26,451 bases of DNA from Chthoniobacteraceae bacterium (GTDB taxonomy: Bacteria; Verrucomicrobiota; Verrucomicrobiia; Chthoniobacterales; Chthoniobacteraceae). Shown here piece by piece: positions 1,845 through 22,720 of this stretch. Position 1 is the stretch's first letter. Each line of letters begins with the position of its first letter. The translations under genes were made by a program, and so were the position numbers. The notes beneath the pieces were generated by a model that saw only the letters and a program-made list of their open reading frames with translations, was not told the DNA's origin and did no database searches. The stretch is taken from NCBI GenBank assembly GCA_031409335.1, contig JANNWY010000092.1, forward strand, positions 1 through 26,451, read 5' to 3'.

Positions 1845-2030
1845 AGCGTGCGGGGGTTGGATTATTCCGGGAAGTTAGCGCGCCGGACCGGTCCGATGCC
1901 AGCATTGAGTCGCGCGCGCCGCCTGCTTCTCCAGAAGCTTGCGCGAAGTCCGGTTTACAGTGCGCCGCAAACCGATTATCTCGGCTCTCTTCCTGATGAA
2001 ACCCGCCCACTTCGCGCGAAGCTGGCCAGC

Positions 2031-3392
2031 ATGAACTGGCGCAAGCACGCTTTCCTCCTCGCGCACGATGCGATCGGCTCCGAGCTGCGCGGGCACTACG
2101 CGGAGTTTCTCGCGTCGGCGCGCTGGTCTGAAAAGCGTTTGGAAAAGCTGCGCGCGGCGCGACTGGATGCCCTGCTGCTGCATGCGTCGAAGGTGGTGCC
2201 GTTTTATCGCGAGCGCGCAACGCGGCCGGAGCTGGCCGCCTTCCCGATCCTGCGGAAGGAAGACATCCACGCGCATTTCGACACGCTGATGGAGCCGTCG
2301 CTGCTGGCAGAGTTTCGCGCTTCGAAAAAGCCGCGCGGCTACTCGTGGGTCGAGGTGAAAACGGGCGGCTCGACCGGGACGCCGACGACGGTGATCCACG
2401 ACAAGGATTTCCGCGACTGGGGCCGCGCGGGGCGGCTGTATTCGCAGTGGCTGTGCGGGTTTCCGATCGGCACGCCGTTTTTCCAGCTCTGGGGCTCGAT
2501 GCGCGACATCAATGACGCGAAGGATTCCACACAAAAGCGCGTGCTGAATTCGCTCCTGCAAGTGCATCCGATGAATGCCTTCCTGATGGACGAAGCGCGC
2601 ATGGCCGCTTACCTGAGCGAGATCGGCGAATCGCGGATCGATCACCTGATGGCCTATGTCGATGCCGCGGATCAGCTCGCGCGTTTCCAGGAAAAAAGCG
2701 GGAAGCCGATGCGCCCGCTGAAAAGCATCATGGCCTGCGCGGGCACGGTGACGGACGAAGTGCGCGAGAAACTCACCCGCGTCTTCGGCGCACGCGTTCA
2801 CAACAAATACGGCAGCCGCGAATGCGCCGACATGGCGTGCGAATGCGCGGCGGGCGGCTTCCACATTTATGCGACCGGCATTCACCTCGAAATCGTGGAC
2901 GACGCTGGCCAGCCCGTGCCCGCCGGAACGACCGGGCGCATCCTCGTAACGCTGCTGCAAAACCGCCGCTTCCCGATCATCCGCTACGAGATTGGCGACA
3001 TCGGCGCGCTGAGTTTGGCGATGTGCTCGTGCGGATCGCCGCTGCCGCTGCTGGAGCGTGTCGAGGGGCGCATTTCGGAAATCATCACCGCGGCGGATGG
3101 TGCCTACGTCAGCCCGGTTTTCATCCGGCATGTGATCGGCGTGACGCACAACGATGGTTCCATAGAGCGATTCCAATTCGTGCAAACCGGCGCGGCGGCT
3201 TACACGCTGGCATTGCAGTTGGATACCGCATTACCGGCGGAAAGATTCGCGCAAATCGTCGCGCCGCTGCGGAGCGATCTCGAGACAGTGCTCGGCGCGG
3301 GCGCGCAACTTGAGATCGGGCGGGTCGCGGACATTCCGCTCGGCGAAAGTGGGAAGTTTCCATATTTGCGAAATCTCCACCAATTCAGATGA
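2031..3392 (+). CDS. Phenylacetate-CoA ligase-like / CapK-like adenylate-forming enzyme, copy 1 (453 aa)
   Basis: P-loop-like KTGGSTGTP, YGSRE, IRYEIGD, VEGR and terminal SGK motifs. Start set at ATG 2031 (MNWRK) by alignment with the paralogue at 4711; the 753-2030 extension in the ORF track is antisense to the 480-aa gene. Confidence 0.88.
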   Translation: MNWRKHAFLLAHDAIGSELRGHYAEFLASARWSEKRLEKLRAARLDALLLHASKVVPFYRERATRPELAAFPILRKEDIHAHFDTLMEPSLLAEFRASKKPRGYSWVEVKTGGSTGTPTTVIHDKDFRDWGRAGRLYSQWLCGFPIGTPFFQLWGSMRDINDAKDSTQKRVLNSLLQVHPMNAFLMDEARMAAYLSEIGESRIDHLMAYVDAADQLARFQEKSGKPMRPLKSIMACAGTVTDEVREKLTRVFGARVHNKYGSRECADMACECAAGGFHIYATGIHLEIVDDAGQPVPAGTTGRILVTLLQNRRFPIIRYEIGDIGALSLAMCSCGSPLPLLERVEGRISEIITAADGAYVSPVFIRHVIGVTHNDGSIERFQFVQTGAAAYTLALQLDTALPAERFAQIVAPLRSDLETVLGAGAQLEIGRVADIPLGESGKFPYLRNLHQFR

Positions 3393-4714
3393 ACGAAATC
3401 GACATTGCCCTCGGGCCGGACACCGACCCCGTGCCGTTCATTCTGCGCAATCTGCCGGACGGCAATTTCCGCCGGATCGTGCTCAAACCAAACTGGGTGA
3501 AGCACGAGGAGCACGCCGAATTTCCCATCGCGGCGCTTGTCACGGGCACGGCGCTCATCGAGGCGTGCATCGAGGCATGCCGGAAAAAATATCCGCGCGC
3601 GGAGAAAATCATCGTCGGCGATGTGCCGCTGCAAACATGCGATTGGGCGGCCCTTATCCGGCAGACGGGCGTGGACCGGCTGATGGAAAAATATCGCGGG
3701 AGCCTCGTGCAGTTTCTGGATTTGCGGCGCGAGCGATGGATCCCGAAGGACGGCTTCATGGAACTGGAATCCGCGCACCCCGGCGATCCGCTCGGCTACA
3801 GTGAGATCGTCATCGACCACACCAGCCTGCTCGAGGAAGTGAGCCACAACGCGGATTCGTTTCGCGTCTCGGACTACAATCCGGCGGAGACGATCAGCGT
3901 GCATCGCAAAGGTGTGCATCGCTATCTCATCGCGAAAACCGTGCTGGAAGCAGACCTCTTCATCAATCTTCCGAAGATGAAGACGCACCAGAAATCCGGG
4001 ATCACCGGCGCGTTGAAAAACATCGTCGGCATCAACGGCTCGAAGGCGCATCTCGTGCATCACCAGCTCGGCTTTCCCTCGCAGGGCGGCGATGAGTTTC
4101 CCGAGGATGCCTCGCGCCTCATCTATTGGCAGGCGCGGCTGCGTGAGCGGTTTCAAAAAAAATCAAAAGTCGTTTTCAATCTGCTGAAGCGCGGCTGGGA
4201 GGTGGTCAAGAAACTGCGCTGCATCAAGACCGTCGGCACGAGGGAAAATCTCGGCGGCACCTTTTACGTCGGCTCCGGCTCGTGGTACGGCAACGACTCC
4301 ATCTGGCGCATGGTCTATGACCTGAACATGATCATCCTCTTCGCGCATGCCGACGGCGGCCCGCTCCGCGCCGAGCCCCAGCGCACGGTGCTCTCGATCA
4401 TGGACGGCCTCGTCGCTGGCGAGGGCAACGGCCCGCTCCAGCCGCTGCCGGTAAAAGCGGACGCGCTGCTAGCCTCACGCAATCCTTTCCTCATCGACTT
4501 CGCGATGGCGAAGCTCATGGGCTTCGACGTCCGAAAAATCCGGTTGCTCGCCCACTACCGGCGCTTTCCCTACGCGCCGTTCGCCGCGTTAGAGCCGGAA
4601 AAATTCGCGGTCACTTTGAATGGCGTGCGCTCCGAGACCGGGCTCGACGCGCTGCCGGTGATTCATCGCTTCATCCCAGCGCCCGGCTGGCGCGGCCACA
4701 TCGAACTCGCATGA
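3389..4714 (+). CDS. DUF362-family protein, long form (441 aa)
   Basis: IVLKPNWV, INLPKMKTHQKSGITGALKNIVG and DGLVAGEGNGP motifs; ATGA overlap with the upstream stop codon. Confidence 0.85.
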   Translation: MNEIDIALGPDTDPVPFILRNLPDGNFRRIVLKPNWVKHEEHAEFPIAALVTGTALIEACIEACRKKYPRAEKIIVGDVPLQTCDWAALIRQTGVDRLMEKYRGSLVQFLDLRRERWIPKDGFMELESAHPGDPLGYSEIVIDHTSLLEEVSHNADSFRVSDYNPAETISVHRKGVHRYLIAKTVLEADLFINLPKMKTHQKSGITGALKNIVGINGSKAHLVHHQLGFPSQGGDEFPEDASRLIYWQARLRERFQKKSKVVFNLLKRGWEVVKKLRCIKTVGTRENLGGTFYVGSGSWYGNDSIWRMVYDLNMIILFAHADGGPLRAEPQRTVLSIMDGLVAGEGNGPLQPLPVKADALLASRNPFLIDFAMAKLMGFDVRKIRLLAHYRRFPYAPFAALEPEKFAVTLNGVRSETGLDALPVIHRFIPAPGWRGHIELA

Positions 4715-6072
4715 ACTGGCGCAAACCAGCGTTTCTCTTCGCGCACGATCTCATCGGCTCCGGACTGCGCGGGCACTACCGCGAATTTCTCGCCGCCGAG
4801 CACTGGCCCGCCGCGCGGCTGAGTGAATTGCACGACCAGCGCCTCGCCGCGCTGCTCCGGCATGCGGTGAAAGACGTGCCGTTCTATCGCGACCGCGCGC
4901 GCGCACCGGAGCTGTCCGCTTTTCCGATCCTGCGGAAAGAGGACGTTCACGCACACTTCGAGGAACTGATGGAGCCGTCGCTACTTGCCGAGTATCGCGG
5001 CGAGAAAAAAAAAGAACGCTATTCATGGGTCGAGGTGAAAACCGGTGGCTCCACCGGCAAGCCCACGGTCGTGATCCACGACCGGGATTTCCGCGACTGG
5101 GGTCGGGCGGGCCGGCTGTATTCGCAGCATCTCTGCGGATTCCCGCTTGGCACGCCCTTCTTCATGCTCTGGGGCTCGATGCGCGACATCAATGAGTCGA
5201 AGGACTCCGTGACGAAGCGCGTGCTGAACACGCTCCTCCACGTCCATCCACTCAACGCCTTTCTCATGGACGACACGCGCATGCACGACTACGCGCGGCA
5301 GATCAACGGGTCGTCCATAGGACACCTCATGGCCTACGTCGATGCCGCGTATCAGCTCGCGCGTTTTCTCGAAAAGAGCGGCGTGAAAATGCGCCCCATC
5401 GAATCCGTGATGGCCTGCGCGGGCACGGTTACGGGCGACCACCGCGCGATCCTCTCCCGCGTTTTCGGCGCGCGCGTCCACAACAAATACGGCAGCCGCG
5501 AATGCGCCGACATGGCCTGCGAATGCGCGGCGGGTGGGTTCCACATTTACACCAGCGGCGTGCATCTCGAAATCGTCGATGACGCCGGCCAGCCCGTGCC
5601 CGCAGGCATAACGGGCCGCATCCTCGTCACGCTCCTGCAAAACCGCCGCTTCCCGGTCATCCGCTACGAGATCGGCGACATCGGCGGGCTGAGCACCAAG
5701 CCATGTCCTTGCGGTTCCCCGCTGCCGCTGCTGGAACGCGTAGAAGGCCGCATCTCCGAAGTCATCACCAAGGCCAACGGCGCTTACCTCACCCCGTCGT
5801 ATATCGTCCATCTCGTCGGCGTCGTGCATAATCCTGGAGCCGTCACGCGTTTCCAGTTCGTTCAGACCGGCGCGGCGGAATACACGCTTTCTATCGCGCT
5901 CGATGCAGAGTTTTCGGACGATGAATTCGGACGGCTCACCGTGGCCCTGCGACGCGATCTTGAAGCTGTGCTCGGTCCGGGCACGCAGCTCGGCATCTCC
6001 CGCGTCACCGACATTCCGCCGAGCGAAAGCGGCAAGTTTCTTTACGTGCGCAATCTGCATCGGGGTCGATGA
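4711..6072 (+). CDS. Phenylacetate-CoA ligase-like / CapK-like adenylate-forming enzyme, copy 2 (453 aa)
   Basis: KTGGSTGKP, YGSRE, IRYEIGD and SGKF motifs; colinear with 2031-3392; ATGA overlap at 4711-4714. Confidence 0.9.
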   Translation: MNWRKPAFLFAHDLIGSGLRGHYREFLAAEHWPAARLSELHDQRLAALLRHAVKDVPFYRDRARAPELSAFPILRKEDVHAHFEELMEPSLLAEYRGEKKKERYSWVEVKTGGSTGKPTVVIHDRDFRDWGRAGRLYSQHLCGFPLGTPFFMLWGSMRDINESKDSVTKRVLNTLLHVHPLNAFLMDDTRMHDYARQINGSSIGHLMAYVDAAYQLARFLEKSGVKMRPIESVMACAGTVTGDHRAILSRVFGARVHNKYGSRECADMACECAAGGFHIYTSGVHLEIVDDAGQPVPAGITGRILVTLLQNRRFPVIRYEIGDIGGLSTKPCPCGSPLPLLERVEGRISEVITKANGAYLTPSYIVHLVGVVHNPGAVTRFQFVQTGAAEYTLSIALDAEFSDDEFGRLTVALRRDLEAVLGPGTQLGISRVTDIPPSESGKFLYVRNLHRGR

Positions 6073-7232
6073 GCACCCGCATTCTCTACATCCACAACAG
6101 CGCAGACATTTACGGCGCGAGCCGTTCGCTGGTGCGGCTGCTCGGCGTGCTCGACCTAGGAAAATTCGATCCGCTCGTGATGCTCCCGGAGGAGGGGCCG
6201 CTGGCGGAGCAGTTCCGCGCGCTGCCGGTGCGGGTGATTATTTTTCCGGCGCTGAGCGTGATTGACCGGGCGGTTTTCAAATCGTGGCGGCTGCCGTTTT
6301 TTCTGCTCGGCATTCCGGTCTCAGTGCTCCGTCTCTGGCGAATCCTGAAGCGCGAGAAGATCGACCTCGTGCATACGAACACGGGCGTGGTGCTTTCGCC
6401 GGGGCTGGCGGCGAGGATGGCGGGTGTGCCGCATGTCTGGCATATCCGCGACTGGTTTCAGGAGTTCGCGGGGTTCTGGCGGTTTTATGAAAAGTGGATG
6501 CGTGCTTTTGCGACGCGAATCATCGCGGTGTCGGGACCGATCGCGGGGCAGTTCACGGATCGGGCGAAGGTTTGCGTGATCAATAACGGGTTCGATCCGG
6601 CGGAATTTGAGCTGGGTGATCCGCGTGTGGGTGTGGCGTTCCGCGAAACCTACGGGCTCGGTGCAGCACCGGTGGTGGGGTGCGTCGGGCGAATCAAATT
6701 GCAGCGCAAAGGGCAGGAGGTTTTTCTTCGGGCGGCAGGGATTTTGAAAGCTCGCGGCATTTCCGCGAAGTGGCTCGTCGTTGGGGCACCATTTCCGGGG
6801 AATGAATCGCACCTCGAAGCCCTGCGCGACATCGTGCGCGAGCACCATCTGCGCGACGACGTGGTTTTCACCGGCGAGCTGAAAGACCCGCGCCCGGCCT
6901 ACGCGGCGATGAGCATTTTCGTGCTGCCCTCCGCGCAGCCGGAGCCCTTTGGCGGCGTGGTGATGGAGGCGATGTGCATGGGGCTTCCCGTGATCGCGAC
7001 GAACATCGGCGGCTCCACCGAGCAGGTCGCCGATGGCGAAAGCGGCTGGCTCGTCCCACCGAATGATCCCGCGGCGCTCGCGGACAAACTGGAAATGCTG
7101 CTGCGCGATGAGGCGCTCCGCAAATTCTTTGGCGAAGCGGGACGGCGGCGCATCGCGGAACGCTTCACGCTGAAGGGCATGGTCGAAAAAATCACCGCCG
7201 TTTATGACGAATGTCTGAAAAACCGGCGTTGA
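6069..7232 (+). CDS. GT4-family glycosyltransferase (387 aa)
   Basis: N-terminal YGASRSL, DLVHTN and VWHIRD motifs; C-terminal EPFGGVVMEAM (E-x7-E) and PVIATNIGG; ATGA overlap at 6069-6072. Confidence 0.93.
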   Translation: MSTRILYIHNSADIYGASRSLVRLLGVLDLGKFDPLVMLPEEGPLAEQFRALPVRVIIFPALSVIDRAVFKSWRLPFFLLGIPVSVLRLWRILKREKIDLVHTNTGVVLSPGLAARMAGVPHVWHIRDWFQEFAGFWRFYEKWMRAFATRIIAVSGPIAGQFTDRAKVCVINNGFDPAEFELGDPRVGVAFRETYGLGAAPVVGCVGRIKLQRKGQEVFLRAAGILKARGISAKWLVVGAPFPGNESHLEALRDIVREHHLRDDVVFTGELKDPRPAYAAMSIFVLPSAQPEPFGGVVMEAMCMGLPVIATNIGGSTEQVADGESGWLVPPNDPAALADKLEMLLRDEALRKFFGEAGRRRIAERFTLKGMVEKITAVYDECLKNRR

Positions 7233-7236
7233 GGAA

Positions 7237-7310
7237 CTCACGCAAAGGCGCAAAGACGTCAAGATTCTGCCTGGCACTTCTTCCTTTGCGCCTCTGCGCC
7301 TTTGCGTGAG
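7237..7310. repeat. Inverted tandem repeat element with 8-nt units (CGCAAAGG)
   Basis: CTCACGCAAAGG-CGCAAAGA-CGTCAAGA (7237-7264) and CTTTGCG-CCTCTGCG-CCTTTGCGTGAG (7284-7310). Confidence 0.85.
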
Positions 7311-7327
7311 AAAATTCCGAGCTGCCC

Positions 7328-8350
7328 ATGAACCCGAATCCCATCGTTTCCATCCAGAGCCTCGTCGATACCGGCTATCCGGCAGTGATCGAAAAGACGC
7401 TGACGGAGATTGGTTTCTTCCGCGATGTGCCGGCCGGCGGGCGCGTTTTTCTGAAGCCGAATCTGACGTTTCCCACGTTCCGGCCGGGCGTGATGACTTC
7501 GTTCGATTGCCTGAGCGCGGTGACGAAATGTCTGATCGCACACGGCTATCGCGTGGTCATCGGCGAGGCAGACAGCGGCGGATACAACCGGTTTTCGATC
7601 GACGAAGTTTTCAAAGGGATGGGCATCGACCAGCTCGCGAAGGACACCGGCGCGGAGATTGTGAATGTCAGTTTCGCCGAGCCGGAGTGGCTGGAAATCC
7701 GCGCGGGCTGGCGGACTTTGCGCGCGCCTTTTCCGAAGATGATGCTCCGCGAGATCGACGCTTTCATCACGCTGCCAGTGCCGAAGATTCACATGAACAC
7801 GCTGGTTTCCATGTCGATCAAGAACCAGTGGGGCTGCATCCAGGAGCCGAATGAGCGGCTGAAGCTGCATCCGTATTTCGCGGAGACGATGTATGAATTC
7901 GAGACGCGGCTGCCGCGCGCGTATTCGATCATCGACGGGCGCTACGGGCTGAATCGCACGGGGCCGATGCTGGGCGATGTGGTGGATTTTAATTTCGTGC
8001 TCGGCTCGAACGATCTCGTCGCCGCCGACCGCGTGTGCTGCCGCATCATGCAAATCGACGAGGCCGATGTGGCGTATCTGCGTTATTTCAAATCGCGTGG
8101 CTGGTGGACGCCGTGGGAAAGCATTCGCCTGAACGACGACCCGGCGCGTTTTCAAAAGGGAAAATTTTTTCTGGAAAGAAAATGGACCGATTATCCCGGC
8201 CTCATCTGCTTCAACAACGCCTTCCTCGCCTGGCTCGGCTACCACTCGCCGCTCGCCGGTTTCGCGCACTGGCTGCTCTATTTATTCCGCGAGCCGTTTT
8301 ACGAATACGACAAGGAAAAGTCGAAGCTGCGCGACGAGGCGAAGAAGTAG
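7328..8350 (+). CDS. DUF362-family protein, short form (340 aa)
   Basis: VFLKPNL, VIGEADSG, ITLPVPKIHMNTLVSMSIKNQWG, IIDG...GP and DLVAAD motifs. Confidence 0.87.
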   Translation: MNPNPIVSIQSLVDTGYPAVIEKTLTEIGFFRDVPAGGRVFLKPNLTFPTFRPGVMTSFDCLSAVTKCLIAHGYRVVIGEADSGGYNRFSIDEVFKGMGIDQLAKDTGAEIVNVSFAEPEWLEIRAGWRTLRAPFPKMMLREIDAFITLPVPKIHMNTLVSMSIKNQWGCIQEPNERLKLHPYFAETMYEFETRLPRAYSIIDGRYGLNRTGPMLGDVVDFNFVLGSNDLVAADRVCCRIMQIDEADVAYLRYFKSRGWWTPWESIRLNDDPARFQKGKFFLERKWTDYPGLICFNNAFLAWLGYHSPLAGFAHWLLYLFREPFYEYDKEKSKLRDEAKK

Positions 8351-8363
8351 CGCGGCTTTTCTT

Positions 8364-8459
8364 AAACACAGAGGCACGGAGGACACAGAGGTTCACAGAG
8401 ACGGAAGACGACCCTGACTTTCTCTGTGCAACTCTGTGTCCTCTGTACCTCTGAGTTAA
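8364..8459. repeat. Palindromic CACAGAG-array element, copy A (upstream of carB)
   Basis: AAACACAGAGG-CACGGAGGA-CACAGAGGTT-CACAGAG (8364-8400) with an inverted arm CTCTGTG-CAACTCTGTG-TCCTCTGTA-CCTCTGAGTT (8422-8457). Confidence 0.88.
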
Positions 8460-8539: not shown

Positions 8540-11500
8540 ATGCCCAAAGACCCTTCGCTTCACAAAATTCTCGTCATCGGCTCCGGCCCCATCGTCATCG
8601 GGCAGGGGTGCGAATTTGACTACTCGGGCGTGCAGGCTTGCAAGGCGCTGAAGGAGGAGGGCTACACGGTCATCCTCGTGAACTCGAACCCGGCGACGAT
8701 CATGACGGACCCGGAATTTGCGCACCGGACTTACATCGAGCCGATCACGCCGCAGATCGTGGAGCTGATCATTGAAAAGGAAAAGCCGGACGCGCTGCTG
8801 CCGACGCTGGGCGGGCAGACGGCGCTGAATTGTGCGATGAAACTTTTTGAATCCGGCGTGCTGGAAAAGCATGGTGTGAAAATGATCGGCGCGAATGCGG
8901 CGGCGATTCACAAGGGCGAGGACCGGCAGGCTTTTAAGGACGCGATGATCAAGATCGGCATGGATATGCCGCACTCCGGGACGGCGCACACGATCGAGGA
9001 TGCGCGCAAAGTTTTGACGGAAATCGGGACGCTGCCGCTGATCATCCGGCCCGCTTTCACGCTCGGCGGTTCGGGCGGCGGGATTGCTTACAACAAGGAG
9101 GAATTCGAGACGATCGTGGCGCGCGGGCTCGATCTTTCGCCGGTGAGCGAAGTGCTGATCGAGGAGTCGCTGCTCGGCTGGAAGGAATTTGAGATGGAGG
9201 TGATGCGCGACCGTCACGACAACTGTGTGATCGTGTGCTCGATCGAGAATGTGGACCCGATGGGCGTGCATACCGGCGACTCGATCACGGTCGCGCCGAT
9301 CCAGACGCTGACGGATCGCGAATATCAGATGATGCGCGATGCGTCGTTTGCGATCATCCGCGAGATCGGGGTGGAAACGGGCGGATCGAATATCCAGTTC
9401 GCGGTGGAGCCGGACACGGGGCGCATGATCGTGATCGAGATGAATCCGCGCGTGTCGCGTTCATCGGCGCTGGCGTCGAAGGCGACCGGCTTTCCCATCG
9501 CGAAAATCGCGGCGCGGCTCGCGGTCGGCTATACGCTCGATGAAGTGCGCAACGACATCACGCGAGTGACGCCGGCGAGCTTTGAGCCGACGATTGATTA
9601 TGTCGTGGTGAAATGCCCGCGGTTCACTTTCGAGAAATTTCCGCAGGCCGATCCGGTGCTGACCACGCAGATGAAAAGCGTCGGCGAGGCGATGGCAATC
9701 GGGCGCACTTTCAAAGAGGCGCTGCAAAAGGCGCTGCGTTCGCTGGAGATCAAACGCTTTGGATTCATCGGCGATGGCAAGGATGTCGTGGTCGATGACG
9801 AGACGCTGCGGACGAAATTGACGGTGCCGAATGCGGAGCGGATTTTCTTCCTCGGCCTCGCGCTGGCGCGCGGCTGGAGCGTTGAGGAAATCTTCGAGCT
9901 GACGAAGATCGACCGCTGGTTTTTGGAAAACATGCGGCAGATCGTGGCGGCTGATGCGCAGATGAAATCGCCCGCCGAAAAGGCGCAGCCGCGCAGCCTG
10001 CTTTCGCCGTGGAAATCGCAGAACGCAACCGGCCTGCTCGAAGATCGCGCGGCGCTCGTGCGCGCGAAGAAGCTCGGCTTTTCCGATGTGCAAATCGGCG
10101 TCGCGACGGGCACGACCGCGGCGGCGGTGCGCGCGGCGCGGCACAAGCACGGGGTCATCCCGACTTACCGGCTCGTCGATACGTGCGCGGCGGAGTTCGA
10201 GGCTTACACGCCTTACTATTACTCGACGTATGGCGATGAGAATGAGCGGCGCGATTCGGGAAAGAAAAAGGTCATCATCCTCGGTGGCGGACCGAACCGC
10301 ATCGGACAGGGCATCGAGTTCGACTACTGCTGCGTCCACGCCGCGTTCGCGCTGCGCGAGGAGGGCTTCGAGACGATCATGGTGAACTCGAATCCCGAGA
10401 CGGTTTCGACCGACTACGACACGAGCGACAAGCTGTATTTCGAGCCGCTCACGCTCGAAGACGTGCTCAATATTTGCGAACAGGAAAAGCCGTGGGGCGT
10501 CATCGTGCAATTCGGCGGGCAGACTCCGCTGAACCTCGCGAACGGACTCGCGGAAGCGGGCGTCCCGATCATCGGCACTTCGCCGAAATCGATCGAGATC
10601 GCGGAAGATCGGAAGCTGTTCGGAGCGATGCTCGACAAGCTCGGCATCCGGCAAACGCACGGCGGCACGGCTGTCACTGAGAGCGAAGCGGTGGCCGTCG
10701 CGGACAGAGTTGGCTATCCCGTGCTCGTGCGCCCGAGCTTCGTGCTCGGCGGACGTGGGATGATGCTCGTCCACAACGAAGCAGACCTGCGGAAGTATGT
10801 CCGCGACGCGATGGAAAGTGGCACAGCCGTCCCGGCTGTGGGGCCCGCAAGCGTTACGCTTGCTTCAAGCGACCTGGTCTTCAAAGCCTTCGATCCGCGA
10901 GCCGAAGTGCAAATTTCCCGGCGAGATCTTCCTCACTGGCAGCAAAACGATGTCGCGTATTTCGTCACCTTCCGCCTCGCGGATGCGGTGCCCCAATCGC
11001 TGCGCCGCGAATGGTCCGAAGAAATCGAAACGTGGCGGCGGCATCATCCCGAACCGTGGGATGCGGCGACCCGTTACGAATATCAAAAGCGTTTTCAAGA
11101 TGGCCGCGAGCAGTGGCTCGATCAGGGGCACGGGGAATGTCTGCTCAGGCGGGCCGACGTCGCCGCGCGGGTCGTCGATGCCTTGCGGCATTTCAATCGC
11201 GACCGCTACGTGCTCGACGCGTTCGTGGTGATGCCGAATCATGTTCACGTTTTGGTAAAGCCCATCCGTGGACACGGGCTGAGCGACATCCTGCACTCGT
11301 GGAAATCTTTTACGGCAAAGGAAGTGAACAAGCTACTCGGGCGCGACGGGGTTTTTTGGCAGGACGAAAACTTTGACCGGATCGTACGCGATTTCGACGA
11401 ATTGGTGCGGTGCCGGGCTTACATCGCCAATAATCCTGCGCAGTCGGGATTGCGCAGTGGGGAAATTTTTTTGGACGCGGCGGGAGCTTTGCAGAATGAT

Positions 11501-12547
11501 TTGGCAGGCGGGACGCCTGCTGGCCCCACAGGCAGGATGCCTGTGCCACAGGCCGCGCGCGCGCAACATCCCATTCTCGTCGATCATTTCCTCGAAGACG
11601 CGACTGAAGTGGATGTCGATTGCATCAGCGATGGCGAGACGGTTGTCATCGGCGCGATCATGGAGCACATCGAAGAAGCCGGCATCCACAGCGGCGACAG
11701 CTCGTGCGTCATCCCGCCGTTTTCGCTGAGCGAAGAGGTGAAGGCCGAAATCACGCGCAGCACGAAGGCGATGGCCAAAGAGTTGAACGTGCGCGGCTTG
11801 ATGAACGTGCAGTTCGCCGTGCAAAACGAAACGGTTTACGTCCTCGAAGTGAACCCGCGCGCCAGCCGCACCGCGCCCTTCGTTTCCAAAGCGATCGGCG
11901 TCCCGCTGCCCAAACTAGCCGCAAAAATCATGGCCGGCAAAACGCTCATCGAACTCGGCTTCACCACCGAAATCGTGCCGCCACATTTCTCCGTGAAAGA
12001 AGCCGTCTTCCCCTTCATCCGCTTCCCCGGCATCGACATCGTGCTCGGCCCCGAGATGAAATCCACCGGTGAAGTGATGGGCATCGACCGCACGCTCGGC
12101 CTCGCTTTTGCCAAATCGCAAATGGCCGCCGCGCCGCCGCTCCCGGCCAAAGGCAACATCTTCATCAGCGTTGCCGATCGCGAAAAAGGCCGCGTCGCCG
12201 ACTTTGCAAAAGGCTTTGTCGAAATGGGCTTCACGCTCTTCGCTACCAGCGGAACCGCCGCCGCACTCAAGGCCGCGGATGTTCCCGTAAAAAAACTGCA
12301 CAAGCTCAACGAAGGCCGCCCCAACGCGCTCGACATGATCAAAAACGGCGAACTCGCCATGATCGTGAACACACCGAGCGGCAAAGTCGCCCGCGAGGAC
12401 GAAGTAAAAATCCGCAGCACCGCGACCGGAAATCGCATCCCCGTCTTCACCACCCTCCGCGGAGCCCGCGCCGCGCTCGAAGGCATCCGCGCCGTCCGCG
12501 AGCACGGCCTCAGCGTGAAGCCGCTCCAGGAGTGGCATCCAAAGTAG
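8540..12547 (+). CDS. carB: Carbamoyl-phosphate synthase large subunit with an in-frame RAYT transposase insert (1335 aa)
   Basis: MPKD...[71 protein letters not shown] and a C-terminal MGS-like allosteric domain; about 244 extra codons after residue 759. Confidence 0.97.
10818..10863 (+). repeat. Left REP doublet (GTGG tag plus two hairpins)
   Basis: GTGG-CACAGCCG-TCC-CGGCTGTG-GGGCCC-GCAAGCG-TTA-CGCTTGC. Confidence 0.9.
11504..11549 (-). repeat. Right REP doublet, an inverted copy of 10818-10863
   Basis: Reverse complement reads GTGG-CACAGGCA-TCC-TGCCTGTG-GGGCCA-GCAGGCG-TCC-CGCCTGC; 37/46 identical to the left copy. Confidence 0.9.
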
Positions 12548-12565: not shown

Positions 12566-14785
12566 CTACTCCCGCATTGTCCGCTTGCCGGATGAAGGGT
12601 CGGCCATCCTTGGAGCCTGTCTGCACTTTACCGCCCTAAACACAGAGGTACAGAGGACACGGAGGATCACAGAGAATTCTCCGATACGGATTCCTCCTCT
12701 GTGTTTCTCGGTGCCCTCTGTATCTCTGTGTTTCAAAAAAGCTAAACAGGCATGAAGGGCTCTATCGGTGCCGCCGCGCCAGCCGATCAGCCCGAGCAGG
12801 CCCATCGCGGTCGCCACGCTCCCCGGCTCCGGCACGGGCACCACTTCGCCGAAGCCTCCGGTGAACCCCGAAAATCCCGGCGCGAAAGGCAGGAGCGTCG
12901 AGCCCGCGTCGCTGTAAAATTTGATCTGCAAAAGCTGACTGGCCACGAGGCCGGTCCCGCTGCCGTTGCCGAAATAAAGCTGATCGGTCCCGCTGCCGGT
13001 GTTCTGATTTCCCGACCAATTCCAAATGCTGAGCGTGCCCGTCCACAAAGCCGCGATGGCAGGCGCGGAGCTATCGGCAAAGCGCAGCACGCTCGCGCCC
13101 GCGCCCATGTCGATGACCGAACTCGCGGACAGCGTGAGCGTGCCCACCGTCTCCGAAAGCCCGCCCGTGCTGAGCTTCCCGCCCGCGAGGGTGAACCCAG
13201 CGGCGTCATTCACACGATCACCCGTCCCGCTCAAAAGCAGCGTGCCTCCCGTGTTGATGATGACGCCGCTGGTCCCCCCGAGCGCGCTGCTGCCCGCCGC
13301 CTCCAGCACCCCCCCGCTGACCGTCGTCCCCCCCGTGAAAGTATTCGCGCCGGTCAAAGCGAGCGTGCCCAAGCCGGTCTTGGTCAGCGCGCCGTTTTGC
13401 AGCGAAGCGGAGATGCGCAGATCGACCGCCGCCGAGCCGTCATGCACCGAAAAAGTGCGCGTACCGCCCAAGTCAATCGCGCCGGGGTTCGTCCCGCTGC
13501 CGCCGCTCAGGATTTGCGCGGTGCCGGAGGTCAGCGTGTTGTCCACCGTCACATTGTTCGTGAGCAGGATTTTGCCGGGCACCGAGTTGGAGGAATCCAG
13601 CGTGATCGTCGGGCTGCCCGTGCCGCCAAAAGTCAGGCCCGCGCCCGCATTCGTCACCGCGAGCACCGATCCCGTCGTGCCGCCATTCACGGTAAAAGTA
13701 CCGCCGGTGAGCGTGACGGCCGGTGCCGCGATCTGCCCGCCATTGCTCAGCAGCGTGGCTCCCCCAGTTTGGCTATAGGCATTGGCCCCCGGAAGCGTGA
13801 GCGTCGTCCCCGCGCCATCCACGGTCACATTGCCGGAGTTAGCGAGTGCGCCAGCCGTCGTCAGGTCGCGATTGTTCTTCAATGTGAGGTTGGCCTGAAT
13901 GCCCTGATTGCTACTGAGCACGGTCGTGAATTTGGTAAAGCTCGATCCCACGCCATCGAGCGTCACGCTGCCCTGGTTCGTCGTGATATTGCTGCCCGTC
14001 GTGATGTTGATGATGGCACCGTTGCTCACGTTCCAAGTCCCGCCGATGAGGTCAGTGCCGCTGTGCTGCGTCACGGCGCCCGACAAGGTGAGCGTGCCGC
14101 TCTGCACGTCGACCGTGCCGGTGTTGTTGAAGGTCGAACCGAAAGTGGTCGTCCCGCCCCCGGCGCTCTTGGTGAAGGTGCCCACGTTGTTGAAGATCGA
14201 GGTGCCGAGGCCGCCCTGGTTGTTCAGAAAGCTGCCGTCAAAGTTCGTGTCAAAGGTCGCCCCGAGCTGGTTGTTGAAGACCGACCCGTTGCCCGTGCTC
14301 AACTGGCCCGCCGTCCACATCGCCGCCCCGGTGTTGTTGAGCGTCCGCCCGTTCAGCGTTTTGGTTGACCCAGCCAGACTCAGCCCGCCATTCGCATTGA
14401 ACGCGCCGGGACTCGCGCCCGTCGCGCCGATTATCCCGCCGCTCCACGTGAACAACTCATTCGTCGTTAGTCCAAGGTTTCCCGTCACCGTCCCCGTGGA
14501 CATGGTGAACTTTTGGATCGTGATGTTCTGATCGAGCGTGACGGTGCTGTTGACGCCGAGGACCGCATCGTAGGTCGGGGTCGGCAACCCGTTATTCGGG
14601 GACGTGCCGGGCGCGCCGGGCGTGGTCCAATTCGCGCCGGAACTCCAGACAGCGCTCCCACCCGTCCAGGTGGAAGTAAAGGTGGCGGCGAACAGCGGCG
14701 CGGCGGAGAAGGCGAGCCCCGCCAGAGCGAGGCGGCGCGCGGCATTCGCTGATCGGATGGAGAGAGAGGCAGATCGTTTTTTCAT
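12566..14785 (-). CDS. PEP-CTERM sorting-domain protein with autotransporter-associated beta-strand repeats; C-terminus apparently frameshifted
   Basis: Likely start ATG 14785 (MKKRSASL...APLFA signal peptide); Gly/Thr/Asn-rich beta-helix-like body; LTKTGLGTLALTGANTFTGGTTVSGGVL passenger repeat; VPEPGSVATAMGLLGLIGWR sorting motif. The canonical stop is probably TAG 12764-12762 in an adjacent frame. Confidence 0.88.
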   Translation of the reverse strand: MKKRSASLSIRSANAARRLALAGLAFSAAPLFAATFTSTWTGGSAVWSSGANWTTPGAPGTSPNNGLPTPTYDAVLGVNSTVTLDQNITIQKFTMSTGTVTGNLGLTTNELFTWSGGIIGATGASPGAFNANGGLSLAGSTKTLNGRTLNNTGAAMWTAGQLSTGNGSVFNNQLGATFDTNFDGSFLNNQGGLGTSIFNNVGTFTKSAGGGTTTFGSTFNNTGTVDVQSGTLTLSGAVTQHSGTDLIGGTWNVSNGAIINITTGSNITTNQGSVTLDGVGSSFTKFTTVLSSNQGIQANLTLKNNRDLTTAGALANSGNVTVDGAGTTLTLPGANAYSQTGGATLLSNGGQIAAPAVTLTGGTFTVNGGTTGSVLAVTNAGAGLTFGGTGSPTITLDSSNSVPGKILLTNNVTVDNTLTSGTAQILSGGSGTNPGAIDLGGTRTFSVHDGSAAVDLRISASLQNGALTKTGLGTLALTGANTFTGGTTVSGGVLEAAGSSALGGTSGVIINTGGTLLLSGTGDRVNDAAGFTLAGGKLSTGGLSETVGTLTLSASSVIDMGAGASVLRFADSSAPAIAALWTGTLSIWNWSGNQNTGSGTDQLYFGNGSGTGLVASQLLQIKFYSDAGSTLLPFAPGFSGFTGGFGEVVPVPEPGSVATAMGLLGLIGWRGGTDRALHACLAFLKHRDTEGTEKHRGGIRIGEFSVILRVLCTSVFRAVKCRQAPRMADPSSGKRTMRE
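12638..12733. repeat. Palindromic CACAGAG-array element, copy B (downstream of carB)
   Basis: AAACACAGAGG-TACAGAGGA-CACGGAGGAT-CACAGAG (12638-12674; 33/37 identical to the left arm of copy A) with an inverted arm at 12697-12733. Confidence 0.88.
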
Positions 14786-18065: not shown

Positions 18066-21000
18066 CTACTGGCGATGCACCGCCGCCCACGCCGCTCGCA
18101 GTTCTTCGCGCGTGAGCGGGACGAGGCCGCCGCCGGGTTCGAGGCGGTGCATTGAGAGCACGCGGGCGAGCGCATCCATCTCGGCGAGCGGACGCGGTGG
18201 TGCGGTGAAATCCCACACGTTCACGCCGCCGCGGCTGTCGCCGCTGGCCACGCGCCCGGCGCGGCTCCAGTGGGCGCTCACGATTTCGTCCTCCGCCATC
18301 GTGCCATCGCGCTGGTTCTTTGGCTTGCGCGGCGGCTGGCCTCGATGATGTAGAGTGGCTGCGGCGTCGCCGGTCGCGGTTTCCCAGATGCGGAATTCGC
18401 GGTTCGAGCGAATCCAGACGAGCAGGCCATCGGGCGAAAATCCCACGTCGCTGATCCGGTCATCGTGCTGGATGGGCGCGAGTGCGCGCTGCCCGTCGCG
18501 CAAGCGCCAGAGCCAGAGCCGCTGATCGCGCGTGCCGGTGGCGAGCAGATCGCCGGCGGGTGAAAACGCGGCCTGCTTCACGGCGGCGGCGTGTTTGAAA
18601 CGCGGGAGAATTTCGCGCCCCGTCGCCGCATCGATCACGCGCAAATCTCCGGGCAGCGTATCCGGCCACGACCACCAGACGGCGAGCCGTCGGCCCGTCG
18701 CGTCGAAGCGCGCGCCCGCCTCGCGCCATTTGCCGCCTTCGATAAAAGGCTCGCCAATGCGCGCGCCCGCCGCCGCGTCCCAAAGCTGCACGGCATCATC
18801 CGCGATCGTGACGAGCCGCGCGCCGTCCGCGCCGAACGCGCAGTGCAGCGCGCCGCCGCTCGCGAGCGTGTGCTGCACGGTGCCGGTGGCCGGATCGCAG
18901 AGCAGCGTTTCTTTTTCCAAAAGCACCGCCGCGCGCCGCCCGTCCGCGCTCAGCGCCACATCGCGGATCGCGCCCGCGCAGGGAATGAGCGGCCCGGCAG
19001 GCTCGCCGCTCTCCGCATCCCACAGCCGCGCGCCGTGCGTGCCGCCGACGAAAACCAACCGCCCCGTCGCATCCGGCGCGGCGCAAGTCGCCGCTTCACC
19101 TAGCACGCGATCTTCTCCGGCGGGCTCGAAAATGCGGAGCGGGTCCGGGCGAAAAGGAACCGCTTCCTCGTCGAGCTTGCGCTCGGCGATTACGGGCCGG
19201 CCGGTGCTCGCATCGCGTGCGCTGAGCCGCGCATCCCCGCCGATGCTGTGCAGGACAGTGCCCGCGGCATTCCACCACATGGCGAGTGCGGGCGATGTTC
19301 GCTCCGCGCTCCACGCGGTGCCATTGAGCGCGGGCAGTTTCCACAGCCGCACCGCAGGCTCGCCGCTCAAGCAAAGAAGCGTCCTGCCATCGGGACTGAG
19401 GGCGACGCCGCCGGGCCGTCCATCCGCCCAGAGCAAGGGCGTGAGCGGCCTGGCCGCGTCCGCATCCCAGACCTGCGCCGCGCCGTTTTCGCCCGCGAGC
19501 GCGAAGATATTGCGCCGGGCGGCAAAGGTCGCTGCCGCGGTGCGCGCACCGATGGGGACATCGAAGAGCAGCCGGTCGGTCGCGCCTTCGCGCAGCATCG
19601 AGCCGCCGACGGCGCGCGTGAGCACCACCCAGCGCGTGCCGCTGAGCCAGCCGTGCTTGATGCTGCCGCTGGCCTTCGTCTCGCCGCGCGCCACGATCGC
19701 GCCATTGGTGAGATCGAGGACCGCGAGCCGGCCCTCGCCTTTCACGCGCAATCCGGCGAAGCGGCCGGCGGGGTCGAAATTTCCAAAGTCCGGCTCGCCG
19801 CCGAAATCCAGCGGCGGCATCACGAGCGAGCGCGATTCGACATCCCACAGCATCAGACTGCGCTTCGAGCCGGCGAGGAGGCGCGTGCCGTCGGGCGAGA
19901 TCACGACCCACTCGATTTTTTCCGGCGGCGAAAAGGTCGCGTCCACCGCGCCATCGAGCGCGGAGACGCAGGTGGCAATGCCCGCGGCGCGCTGCCACGC
20001 GGCGAGGCGCAGGCGCGGCCCGCCGAACACGGCGCGCACATGCGGTTCGCCCGGCAGGGTGGCGAGCGCGGTGCTGGTGGTGGCATCCCAAATCGTGATC
20101 TGGTCGTCCCGCGTGCTGGTCACGATGCGGGTCGCGCGCGCATCCGTCCACACCCGCCGCACTTCGCCCAAGTTCCACATCGGCGGCGAAACTGCCGCAC
20201 CCGTCGCCGCATCCCACACGCGCGTTTCGTTGCCGGCATTGATGATCACGCGCCCGCTTTCCCCGGCAAACTGCACATCGCTCGCCGCCTCCGGCAGCCA
20301 GAGCTGCGCGAGCCGCGGAGCCTGGCGCACCGCCATTTCAAAACGCAGCCGCGCCACCTGCTCCCGCGCCGGATCGCCGAGCCCGAGCCGCAGCGCCTCG
20401 ACAAAATGCGGCAGCCCACGCAGCGCATCGCGCTCGTCCGCCAGGCGCAGCCCGGCGCGGATGTGCGCGTGCGCGAGCCGTTCGCGCGTTTTGCGTTCCG
20501 CCGCCTCCGCGCGCCGCCACTGCACCGCGATGCCCGCGGCGCTCGCGGCGAGCAGCACCGTGGCGATGGCCGTGAGCGCCACGAGCGTCGCAAGCGCGGG
20601 ATTTCGCCGCGCCCACAGCGCGGTTTTTTCCAGCGGTGAAACGGGCCGCGCCGCGATCGGGCGTCCCTCCAGCCAGCAGCGCAGATCGTCCGCCAGCGCA
20701 CCCGCGCTCGCGTAGCGCCGCGCCGGTTCCTTCGCGAGCGCCTTTAGCGCGATGATGGCGAGATCGCGCGGGACTTCGCGCAGCGGCGCGGGTTCCGTGC
20801 CGGTGATCGCGCGCAAGACCGCCGGGATCGAGTCGCCCTCGAAAGGCCGGCGCTGCGCGAGCAATTCGTGGAGGATGACGCCGAGGCTCCACACGTCGCT
20901 CGCCGTCGTCGCCGCGCGGGCGCCGTGCTCGGCGATTTCCGGCGCGAGATAGTGCGGCGTGCCGAGCACGGCGGTGGTGCGCGTGAGTTCGGAATCCGCC

Positions 21001-21590
21001 ACATCGAGCAGTTTCGCGAGACCGAAATCGCTGACGAACGCGTGCGCGCTTTCATCGAAAAGAATGTTCCCCGGCTTCAGATCGCGATGCAGCACCGCGC
21101 GCATGTGCGCGTGCTGCACGGCCTCCGCGACGCGCGCGATCAGCGCCGCGATCTCGCGCCACTTTCCCGCGTAGCCGCCGAGCCGCTGCGCGAGCGTGCC
21201 GCCAGCCGCGAGCTTCATGGTGAAATACGGGATGCCATCCTGCTCGCCGAATGCGAACACCGGCAGGATCGCGGGGTGTTCGAGATCGGCCATCGCCTTT
21301 GCCTCCTGGCGAAAGCGCACGAGCGCGCCCGGCGAATCCAGCTCCGCCCCGCGCATCGTTTTCAAAGCAACCACCCGCTCCGGCTCGCGCTGCCGCGCGC
21401 GATAGACCACGCCCATTCCGCCGCGCGCGATTTCGCCGATCAACTCATGCCCGCCGATGTTCCCGAGCGCGCCGTCCTCCACCGCGACTCGGAACGCATC
21501 CGAAAACAAACACGCCGGGCAATGCCCGTGATGCCGCGATACGTCGAGCGGAGCGCCACAGGTGTTGCAGGTGGTTTGAGGGGAGATCAT
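18066..21590 (-). CDS. Hanks-type Ser/Thr protein kinase with N-terminal Cys knuckle, hydrophobic helix and WD40 repeats (about 1174 aa)
   Basis: CNTCG...CPAC; GEIARGGMGVVY, VALK, HRDLKPGN, DFG and GTPHYLAPE; hydrophobic LATLVALTAIATVLLAASAAGIAVQW; many (V/L)WD repeats. Start placed at ATG 21590 because the upstream GTG 21641 overlaps a repeat element. Confidence 0.92.
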   Translation of the reverse strand: MISPQTTCNTCGAPLDVSRHHGHCPACLFSDAFRVAVEDGALGNIGGHELIGEIARGGMGVVYRARQREPERVVALKTMRGAELDSPGALVRFRQEAKAMADLEHPAILPVFAFGEQDGIPYFTMKLAAGGTLAQRLGGYAGKWREIAALIARVAEAVQHAHMRAVLHRDLKPGNILFDESAHAFVSDFGLAKLLDVADSELTRTTAVLGTPHYLAPEIAEHGARAATTASDVWSLGVILHELLAQRRPFEGDSIPAVLRAITGTEPAPLREVPRDLAIIALKALAKEPARRYASAGALADDLRCWLEGRPIAARPVSPLEKTALWARRNPALATLVALTAIATVLLAASAAGIAVQWRRAEAAERKTRERLAHAHIRAGLRLADERDALRGLPHFVEALRLGLGDPAREQVARLRFEMAVRQAPRLAQLWLPEAASDVQFAGESGRVIINAGNETRVWDAATGAAVSPPMWNLGEVRRVWTDARATRIVTSTRDDQITIWDATTSTALATLPGEPHVRAVFGGPRLRLAAWQRAAGIATCVSALDGAVDATFSPPEKIEWVVISPDGTRLLAGSKRSLMLWDVESRSLVMPPLDFGGEPDFGNFDPAGRFAGLRVKGEGRLAVLDLTNGAIVARGETKASGSIKHGWLSGTRWVVLTRAVGGSMLREGATDRLLFDVPIGARTAAATFAARRNIFALAGENGAAQVWDADAARPLTPLLWADGRPGGVALSPDGRTLLCLSGEPAVRLWKLPALNGTAWSAERTSPALAMWWNAAGTVLHSIGGDARLSARDASTGRPVIAERKLDEEAVPFRPDPLRIFEPAGEDRVLGEAATCAAPDATGRLVFVGGTHGARLWDAESGEPAGPLIPCAGAIRDVALSADGRRAAVLLEKETLLCDPATGTVQHTLASGGALHCAFGADGARLVTIADDAVQLWDAAAGARIGEPFIEGGKWREAGARFDATGRRLAVWWSWPDTLPGDLRVIDAATGREILPRFKHAAAVKQAAFSPAGDLLATGTRDQRLWLWRLRDGQRALAPIQHDDRISDVGFSPDGLLVWIRSNREFRIWETATGDAAATLHHRGQPPRKPKNQRDGTMAEDEIVSAHWSRAGRVASGDSRGGVNVWDFTAPPRPLAEMDALARVLSMHRLEPGGGLVPLTREELRAAWAAVHRQ

Positions 21591-21639
21591 CGCCACAGGT
21601 ATTGCGGATGCCGGGGAAAAAGTTTCACGCGGCGAGACC

Positions 21640-21784
<145 letters not shown>

Positions 21785-21793
21785 AGGAGGCCG

Positions 21794-22507
21794 CTAGCCG
21801 CAGTCCGGCGAGCAGAGCACGCGATGCAGGTAGGCGAGTTCCCCGTCGATCTCGTGCGCGGCGCTGACCGTGCGCGCCACCGCCGCGCGGAGTTCCTCGC
21901 GAAAATGCTGCCGCACGCGATGCACCGCCGTCTTCAATGCCGGCAATGAAAGCCCCGCCTGCGCCGCCCCGTTTTCGTAAGTCGGCGGCTGGCTGGCACC
22001 CGGCAGGAATTGCGAAATCACCGCCCACTCGCGCGCGCGTCCACCTTCCAAAAACGGCCGCGCGGCGCCAGCGAGCGCCGCATCCATGAGTTGCCGCGCC
22101 CACTCCCGGTCGAAAACGCGGTCGCCTTCCTCGCTCACTGCCGCCGGCTCGAAACCATTCTCCGCCAGTTCATCGAGACTGCCGATGAACGCCCCACCAC
22201 CCCGGAATTCCGCCTCACCCCGCGCCCGCACCCGCCCGACGACGTGCATCAGCGTGCCAAGCAGAAAGGTGCGAAATTTTCCCCGCGCCCGATCCGCCCG
22301 CTTCCACGCGCGCGACTCGAGCAGGCGGAGAAAAAACTCCTGCGCGAGATCCTCGGCCGCATTCGGCGGGTAGCCGCGCTGGATCAGGAACGCGACGACC
22401 GGCGCACGATACGACTGGCAGAGCCGAGCGAGCGCCGAGCGCGCTTCGGCATCGCCGCTGAGGCTGGCCGCTGCGAGCAGGCTCCAATGGGTGGTGGGGA
22501 AAAACAC
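21794..22507 (-). CDS. ECF-type sigma-70 factor of the kinase-associated type (about 237 aa)
   Basis: FPTTHWSLL N-terminus, LCQSYRAPV, AEDLAQEFF, RGKFRTFL, FDREWA and a region-4-like HTH (YENGAAQAGLSLPALKTAVHRVR); lies upstream of the kinase on the same strand. GTG 22507 preferred as start. Confidence 0.88.
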   Translation of the reverse strand: MFFPTTHWSLLAAASLSGDAEARSALARLCQSYRAPVVAFLIQRGYPPNAAEDLAQEFFLRLLESRAWKRADRARGKFRTFLLGTLMHVVGRVRARGEAEFRGGGAFIGSLDELAENGFEPAAVSEEGDRVFDREWARQLMDAALAGAARPFLEGGRAREWAVISQFLPGASQPPTYENGAAQAGLSLPALKTAVHRVRQHFREELRAAVARTVSAAHEIDGELAYLHRVLCSPDCG

Positions 22508-22513
22508 GCGGAC

Positions 22514-22542
22514 TTTATAGCACAAAAGAAAACTTTCGGGAA
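22514..22542 (-). promoter_or_regulatory. Candidate extended -10 promoter giving a leaderless ECF transcript
   Basis: Minus strand reads TTCCCG-N17-TATAAA with TGc directly before the -10 box; GTG 22507 follows 6 nt later with no SD. Confidence 0.45.
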
Positions 22543-22720
22543 AGTGCACGTCTCGATAAGGCGGGATGGCTTTGCGTTGATCCCGTGAACTCCACGCACC
22601 GATCGCCGATCGCGATTCTCCAGATCATTTTCCACCCGCGAAGACGAAGTGAAAATCCACAGCACCGCCAATGTGAACCGCGGAGCCCGCATCGCCCCCG
22701 AAGGCATCCGAGGGAGCGAA

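Follow-up and report, generated by a model that had tools for sequence, protein, structure and literature searches.

A RAYT transposase cassette nested in frame within carB of a Chthoniobacteraceae bacterium

The window considered here is a stretch of 26,451 nucleotides from a Chthoniobacteraceae bacterium (assembly GCA_031409335.1, contig JANNWY010000092.1, positions 1 to 26,451 of the forward strand), in which carB, the gene for the large subunit of carbamoyl-phosphate synthase, holds a tyrosine transposase associated with repetitive extragenic palindromes (REPs), or RAYT, within its open reading frame (ORF). Nested carB RAYTs of this kind are real and widespread, and this locus is one state of a recurrent system that uses several sites, a point missed by the initial annotation of the sequence. 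The features at issue are listed below in window coordinates.

8540..12547, plus strand: carB, carbamoyl-phosphate synthase large subunit, 1335 aa; one ORF, PRK05294, the genome's sole copy
9950..10070 (approximate bounds), plus strand: site A, a loop of the oligomerization domain; no RAYT here; the RAYT-holding site in most related carB alleles
10697..10817, plus strand: some 120 nt that adjoin the cassette on its 5' side and differ unusually strongly from the sister's empty allele; possibly a short conversion tract, in either direction
10818..11549, plus strand: REP-RAYT cassette of 244 codons, 732 bp foot to foot; in-frame insertion at site B, equivalent to E. coli CarB 742-747
10818..10863, plus strand: left REP, with GTGG foot, hairpin 10822-10840 and second hairpin 10847-10863; the coded linker is Gly/Pro/Ala-rich
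10880..11470, plus strand: HUH-Y1 domain of RAYT/TnpA_REP fold, lacking its own stop codon; two additional helices follow the first core strand (from profile, model, and fold match)
11240..11248, plus strand: HUH motif H901-V902-H903 (from alignment)
11420..11437, plus strand: catalytic tyrosine motif YIANNP, Y961 (from alignment)
11504..11549, minus strand: right REP, inverted, with GTGG foot 11549-11546, hairpin 11527-11545 and second hairpin 11504-11520

An insert in the only carB gene

As first annotated, carB is a single unbroken ORF of 1335 codons. Its product scores 1650.9 bits against PRK05294 (cut-off 599) and exceeds the NCBIfam CarB cut-offs. No further carB exists in the genome (7.9 Mb, 98% complete, 326 contigs), which also holds carA and two transcarbamylase-family genes and in which no carbamate kinase was found above cut-off; this copy is therefore probably needed by the cell, and the idea of a second, intact carB beside a decaying one did not hold. 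The cluster of the full CarB protein has 10 members, the others labeled Chthoniobacteraceae, and none of these 9 covers site B.

An assembly chimera or decaying pseudogene is a possibility that we regard as negligible. The 326-contig assembly, the repeats at both ends of the insert, and the chance that the best-matching public run is the source sample would all suit an artifact. Against this, contigs from two public runs (X1 and X2) cover 10726-11548 with 0 differences, and an X2 contig covers 11519-11662, including 31 letters inside the cassette; the four runs compared are contigs from one study, one of which may be the source sample. Independent support comes from other genomes, given that a RAYT lies at the same site in six other lineages (P0067/P0071, a 99% pair, G084, G087, G092, G093, and G130). 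The single carB with carA, two transcarbamylase-family genes, and no carbamate kinase above cut-off also speaks against decay. The chimera named at the outset as a refuting outcome was thus not encountered.

A RAYT fold between inverted REPs

The in-frame segment running from GTGG to CCAC, proposed from the sequence, proved to have ends that form an inverted repeat of 46 nt, 80% complementary and the longest in the 1.7-kb region. Each end comprises a GTGG foot and two hairpins whose DNA folds have z values of -2.3 to -3.6, outscoring almost every one of 200 shuffled sequences. On the plus strand the right REP reads as a linker of 15 residues. In related cassettes, wherever both feet could be called by eye, the length is divisible by three and the start falls on the second codon position. 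The REP family of the present cassette is scattered over the genome, with 214 REP hairpins, 34 of them inside probable genes by a crude codon filter; members lie in frame in HrpA-, AlaRS-, CusA-, and HsdS-like genes (names read from sequence). As in a REPtron, the RAYT thus lies between inverted, GT(A/G)G-footed REPs whose relatives recur across the genome. No sigma-70-like promoter or terminator was found in 10500-11700.

The insert was described at the outset as an HUH/Y1 transposase with both motifs intact, and profile evidence agrees: Pfam Y1_Tnp (PF01797) matches it at 29.1 bits, above the gathering threshold of 23, so that failure to match such a profile, a further named refutation, did not occur. 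The residues H901, H903, and Y961 (H141, H143, and Y201 in insert numbering) are invariant in 66/66 aligned relatives. The RAYT equivalog NF047646 scores 64.4 bits, below its cut-off of 80. A sequence search of the insert against the PDB returned nothing significant. The structural model of the insert (predicted local distance difference test, pLDDT, 85.9) has E. coli TnpA_REP (4ER8) as its first-ranked Foldseek match (E 1.7e-5), with IS200/IS605 enzymes at E 1.4e-3 or weaker. An IS200/IS605 insertion sequence was considered and rejected, since the tyrosine motif is YIANNP and not Y...Q, NF033573 scores 17.4 bits against a threshold of 55, and near-identical copies are lacking.

The HUH and tyrosine motifs are retained in 4/4 site-B rows, 144/145 site-A rows, 34/42 other nested rows, and 77/82 free rows. 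The ratio of nonsynonymous to synonymous substitution (dN/dS) has a median of 0.095 (range 0.07-0.24) among the 7 of 351 pairs with a synonymous difference (pS) below 0.6, the others being near saturation; the one unsaturated pair that includes the RAYT of this carB gives 0.24. By these sequence comparisons the RAYT domain is under purifying selection.

Probable translation within the host enzyme

The insertion site lies, in the model, between a helix and the PILVD strand. From this position and from general ATP-grasp anatomy, the site would be inside the lid (B) subdomain, a correction to the initial placement after it. When residues 662-1196 were modeled, confidence was high for both domains, with pLDDT below 50 for the two linkers that the REPs encode; the split ATP-grasp of this predicted fusion superposes on 1BXR with Z 32.9 over 278 residues at 2.3 A. 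On these models the cassette is compatible with a folded CarB, with flexible linkers encoded by the REP hairpins.

No stop codon occurs anywhere in the cassette. The absence of a Shine-Dalgarno (SD) motif ahead of the domain, claimed from the sequence, stands; the claimed absence of a start codon does not, as in-frame ATG/GTG codons lie 39, 30, and 7 codons before LPHW. Across 27 carB loci, however, RAYTs share no common start: an SD-like motif occurs in 3/27, and 6/27 have no start codon within 45 codons. With no stop and no shared start, any RAYT protein would form part of the CarB chain unless processed out. Together with purifying selection, these features make translation as a passenger of CarB the most likely outcome.

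Should the cassette instead be removed, by RNA splicing, protein splicing or cleavage, or frequent DNA excision, the cell would make CarB of normal length. Lengths in multiples of three with a fixed phase, where both feet are callable, mean that exact removal would restore the frame. Exact deletion, earlier predicted to give a 1091-aa protein, would leave a loop of 69 residues between GGR and HSGDS; the corresponding loops of relatives measure 67-74, one (L156) being exactly 69, so the predicted loop length is viable. The exact allele itself was seen in no relative, and an exact 3'-flank search of metagenome contigs for it gave 4 loci, none in carB. Nor does the sequence point to splicing. No Rfam match occurs within 10818-11549 at E up to 5, those near carB being sub-threshold hairpins outside the insert, and only about 60-80 nt lie outside the RAYT domain on each side of the cassette. 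An IStron or self-splicing intron is thereby discounted. Inteins splice out of the host protein; the insert has no Hint family match, in keeping with the initial remark that intein motifs are not visible, Ala follows it, and its ends differ among alleles, so an intein was set aside as well. The frame stays open through the whole cassette in all 119 CarB proteins examined, which splicing does not require. The 10817-11550 join is absent among the joints listed, which come from contigs that drop rare variants; being contigs of one study, these runs cannot reveal rare excision. The 19 public runs listed for the locus include no RNA run. The intron-like alternative entertained at first therefore found no support, and removal in any form appears very improbable.

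A RAYT lineage in carB loops

A region search limited to proteins of 734-2337 aa gave 1675 matches, and CarB accounts for 119 of the best 120, many of the best having been named CarB/RayT automatically by the Joint Genome Institute (JGI). The RAYT lies at site A in 117 of these CarB matches (106 by rule, 11 by eye) and at site B in 2. Because such a search favors long hosts, two length-neutral searches were added. Among the matches listed from GTDB genomes, carB makes up 26 of the top 27 loci, and in 151 family genomes the top 9 non-self matches are all in carB, 4 at site A and 5 at site B. In a RAYT tree of 224 rows, one clade (support 89) has 77 of its 79 tips in carB, including one at a third loop; the remaining two have MqnA and a metallo-hydrolase as hosts.

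RAYTs related more distantly are either free-standing or nested elsewhere, and another family is found on 48 of 60 long representatives (at least 400 aa; 60 of 61 used). Their hosts include restriction methyltransferases, tRNA synthetases, RecG, and DnaE. Judged from sequence relationships, this appears to be a RAYT lineage specialized almost only in carB, which the initial annotation likewise did not notice. Two RAYT domains in one CarB were found in none of 121 rows of the CarB set, too few to call exclusion.

Other RAYTs were met in passing. Three more lie in frame with host genes of this genome (G000): inside a sugar kinase/nucleotidyltransferase-like protein of 1436 aa (C107:17935-18612), inside RecG (C96:35419-35721), and ahead of a hydrolase-like domain (C190:4731-5411), the names being read from sequence. 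The RecG-type RAYT is without the extra helices and occurs at the same site in at least 6 relatives. Related RAYTs also lie in frame in defense-type genes at L171, L172, L175, L078, and P0159, among them methyltransferases and a CRISPR-associated NE0113/adenosine deaminase fusion.

Variation at the carB loops

Close relatives differ in what they carry at site B. Among the 30 family alleles closest over the 99 residues before the site (this one included), 14 are short, 10 hold only REPs, 5 hold the RAYT, and 1 is unclear; 2 of the REP-only alleles are cut by contig ends, and REP types vary among alleles. The empty-site alleles that a check of close CarB orthologs was meant to find therefore exist, including that of sister G002, whose CarB is 97% identical. 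Both loops may be modified in one gene: 37 of 134 site-A rows (near-copies included) have a lengthened site B, mostly with REP-like peptides by eye, and P0071 shows the reverse, a RAYT at site B and a REP doublet at site A.

As a separate observation, L032 (G034:C14) combines three inserts in one carB: the RAYT is at site A, a REP doublet occupies site B, and another REP-derived insert lies just beyond site A. The site A loop ranges from 33 to 76 in length among close relatives even without REPs (loci L135-L160), and its sequence varies too; this large variation suggests, from sequence, frequent replacement of the loop.

This distribution bears on whether the RAYT has been domesticated to serve the host within CarB, for example by coupling REP or single-stranded DNA processing to nucleotide and arginine status. 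Strong purifying selection, long residence in carB, and the shared host gene of 77/79 clade members would fit. Such a service is difficult to reconcile with a sister that lacks the RAYT while its CarB is 97% identical, with RAYTs in only about 10 of some 118 family carB alleles found, or with the use of three different loops and the unrelated hosts (48/60 long representatives) of the wider family. We consider domestication improbable.

Evidence for movement of cassettes

Comparison of RAYT and host histories indicates exchange. Monophyly of site-B RAYTs is rejected by the approximately unbiased (AU) test (p 0.0019), and with it a single origin of the site-B cassettes. Tested on the RAYT alignment, two host clades are rejected, as are three RAYT clades when it is the host alignment that is used. 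One grouping was predicted first and held: the G104 cassette (L170), whose REP type is also that of L070, L075, and L076, groups with these three at support 98, whereas its host segment is 85-89% identical to the clade of this carB and 77-81% to the L070/L075/L076 hosts. L052 and L072 have flanks 87-100% identical and RAYT cores only 57-67% identical, with third positions also diverged; for comparison, the cores of L052 and L054 are 77-93% identical. Because the RAYT and CarB data each reject clades of the other tree and RAYTs group by REP type, cassettes apparently have undergone gain, loss, and replacement, both among host lineages and across sites A and B.

At 30-codon resolution no long co-conversion tract was seen at site A. 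In this carB, the 120 nt before the cassette are the least similar to the sister of 12 windows (0.817) and favor some alleles of another genus at informative sites (14/22 vs 31/175); a scan of 14 donors gave p 0.0005 for 2, <0.01 for 5, and >0.05 for 9. Import of this tract into the present allele is a weakened proposal, as many of the differences are private to the sister.

A RAYT that is translated yet passive would be an old, vertical insertion kept only for the genome's REP population, with no homing-like targeting of carB; apparent swaps would then reflect REP-doublet recombination by the host, replacement by genomic paralogs, or tree error. A nearly solid site-A clade (55/56 hosts) and the correlation of host and RAYT distances (Mantel rho 0.52) favor this, and the clade members in MqnA and the metallo-hydrolase mean that a pool of paralogs exists. 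It also accords with the published view that RAYTs do not move themselves (10.1101/2021.07.10.451892). However, the source of replacement RAYTs is repeatedly the clade that resides in carB, and not the many other RAYTs, free or nested elsewhere, of the same genomes, one REP-type/RAYT group recurs in four hosts of separate clades, and swapped cores are far more diverged at third codon positions too. On balance, passivity strikes us as unlikely, though a more serious contender than domestication or removal.

A probable translated and mobile passenger

We instead regard it as probable that the RAYT is translated and active as a passenger, spreading REP doublets and moving from one tolerant carB loop to another. 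The locus would then be a REPtron—a RAYT gene between two inverted REPs—inside a working carB, translated as a passenger domain from what would be the carB promoter and start codon. The tethered, monomeric HUH domain would nick single-stranded REP DNA; such tethering is in keeping with the monomeric state of E. coli TnpA_REP (PMC3479197). The GTGG foot may guide cutting at CC, which the opposite end (CCAC) would offer, much as in one engineered Marinomonas REP, where a GTGG foot steers the cut to CC (PMC8266576). Nicking could seed REP doublets and let the cassette enter REP-bearing or empty carB loops, both locally and between lineages, giving a homing-like cycle of empty, REP-only, and full alleles without splicing, and tethering to its own transcript may confer a cis preference. 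The original inference, that a mobile element persists in a surface hinge as a passenger that is translated, gains support from the linker and domain models, dN/dS, and the tree conflicts.

Several points weigh against an active, mobile passenger. The fusion protein is one predicted from DNA sequence and models. The genome holds no near-identical second cassette, its remaining RAYTs being 36-49% identical, and there is therefore no sign of recent copying; likewise, the empty allele expected from exact excision was absent from the relatives examined. Most groups given to the AU test were picked post hoc from trees, and the RAYT trees are weak in deep support. The Mantel correlation was equaled in 0/999 shuffles, and much of the history would therefore be vertical; a clade of this RAYT with that of P0015, the next-closest RAYT-bearing host, is not rejected (p 0.23). 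For the 5' tract the best donor reaches an identity of 0.84, which is not close, and it may be the sister that is recombinant. Finally, movement could proceed by host recombination between REP doublets instead of RAYT catalysis.

A bolder version takes this carB-specialist lineage of REP-guided single-strand transposases to be a homing element that works without splicing and whose sole form of expression is a domain within the host enzyme. Such an element would lay down in-frame REP doublets as landing sites in tolerant loops, jump from loop to loop of its own gene, and displace resident cassettes across species boundaries. This proposal is tentative, and in our estimation falls slightly short of an even chance. 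Were it true, it would offer a third way, beside RNA and protein splicing, for a selfish nuclease to persist in essential genes, as well as a case of RAYTs moving themselves.

Relation to known systems

The nearest known system is the REPtron, or RAYT-REPIN system, typified by E. coli TnpA_REP (PDB 4ER8; PMC3479197, PMC8266576, 10.1101/119735, 10.1101/2021.07.10.451892), with which the cassette shares a TnpA_REP-fold HUH-Y1 domain between inverted GT(A/G)G-footed REPs and a REP family dispersed through the genome. Described RAYTs are free-standing, extragenic, single-copy, and vertical, with self-movement unsupported (10.1101/2021.07.10.451892). By contrast, the carB RAYT has no stop, is nested in an enzyme, and shows changes of site and replacement, and so does not fit a free-standing, vertical class.

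Within TnpA_Y1 subclass 2.4 (Quentin et al. 2018, PMC6006769), the motifs NH[IFV]H, WQ, and YIxNNP of Table 1 agree with ours, short motifs alone being compared. That subclass also shows in-frame REP insertions inside RAYT genes, as do two other RAYTs of this genome; it differs in that the carB RAYT has about 50 extra helical residues after the first core strand. The two RAYTs concerned are free-standing (G000 C23:12058-12936 and C71:2322-3224), with in-frame REP-derived insertions between HUH and Tyr. Long proteins were discarded in the subclass survey as fusions or annotation errors (PMC6006769), and surveys that do so miss this class; a search of two of its supplements gave no match.

Intragenic, in-frame REPs are known from the GTAG repeats of Opitutus terrae and the palindromic elements (RPEs) of Rickettsia (PMC3733652). 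As in O. terrae, REPs lie in frame inside housekeeping genes here: GTAG-19 codes for GTGVPPV in HrpA, the peptide type of the carB linkers (PMC3733652), and the HrpA-like gene of this genome also carries an in-frame REP. Unlike the carB cassette, the repeats described there are non-autonomous only, and its four supplements hold no mention of a transposase or carB (PMC3733652).

Inteins, homing endonucleases, and the yeast WHO elements resemble the carB RAYT: in each, a nuclease lineage keeps to conserved sites of a single housekeeping gene whose alleles may be occupied, reduced, or empty. Homing of WHO elements targets FBA1, involves no protein splicing, and replaces the 3' end of the gene (PMC7282813). 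In contrast to homing nucleases, which act on double strands, the RAYT would employ single-strand HUH chemistry with REP guides and stay in the host polypeptide. IStrons (PMC4227781) likewise carry an IS-type transposase made harmless inside host genes, but exit via a group I intron, an RNA not found in the carB insert.

A RAYT nested in a host protein is apparently undescribed in print; our literature searches, whose coverage leaves most subscription journals outside, found no description. Current opinion holds RAYTs to be free-standing, single-copy, vertical, and immobile, with the spread of REPs still open, and the present lineage appears to show dated, site-resolved movement. Empty, REP-only, and full alleles of one loop in close relatives make REP/RAYT mobility testable at a defined target. 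The models further suggest that the lid of an ATP-grasp enzyme can accommodate a nuclease of 244 residues, here in Verrucomicrobia that are common in soil and sediment.

Neighboring genes and repeats

A cluster upstream of carB (window 1944-8350) contains two similar adenylate-forming genes, presumably PaaK/CapK-like, together with two DUF362 genes and one GT4 glycosyltransferase. A second family of repeats, purine-rich and palindromic, is intergenic on both sides of carB (7240-7310, 8363-8459, and 12640-12731), and related words occur 26-48 times in the genome. Downstream lie a PATR/PEP-CTERM-like protein at about 12566-14785 and, at 18066-22549, an extracytoplasmic function (ECF)-type sigma factor adjoining a Ser/Thr kinase with WD40 repeats, both ordinary in this phylum.

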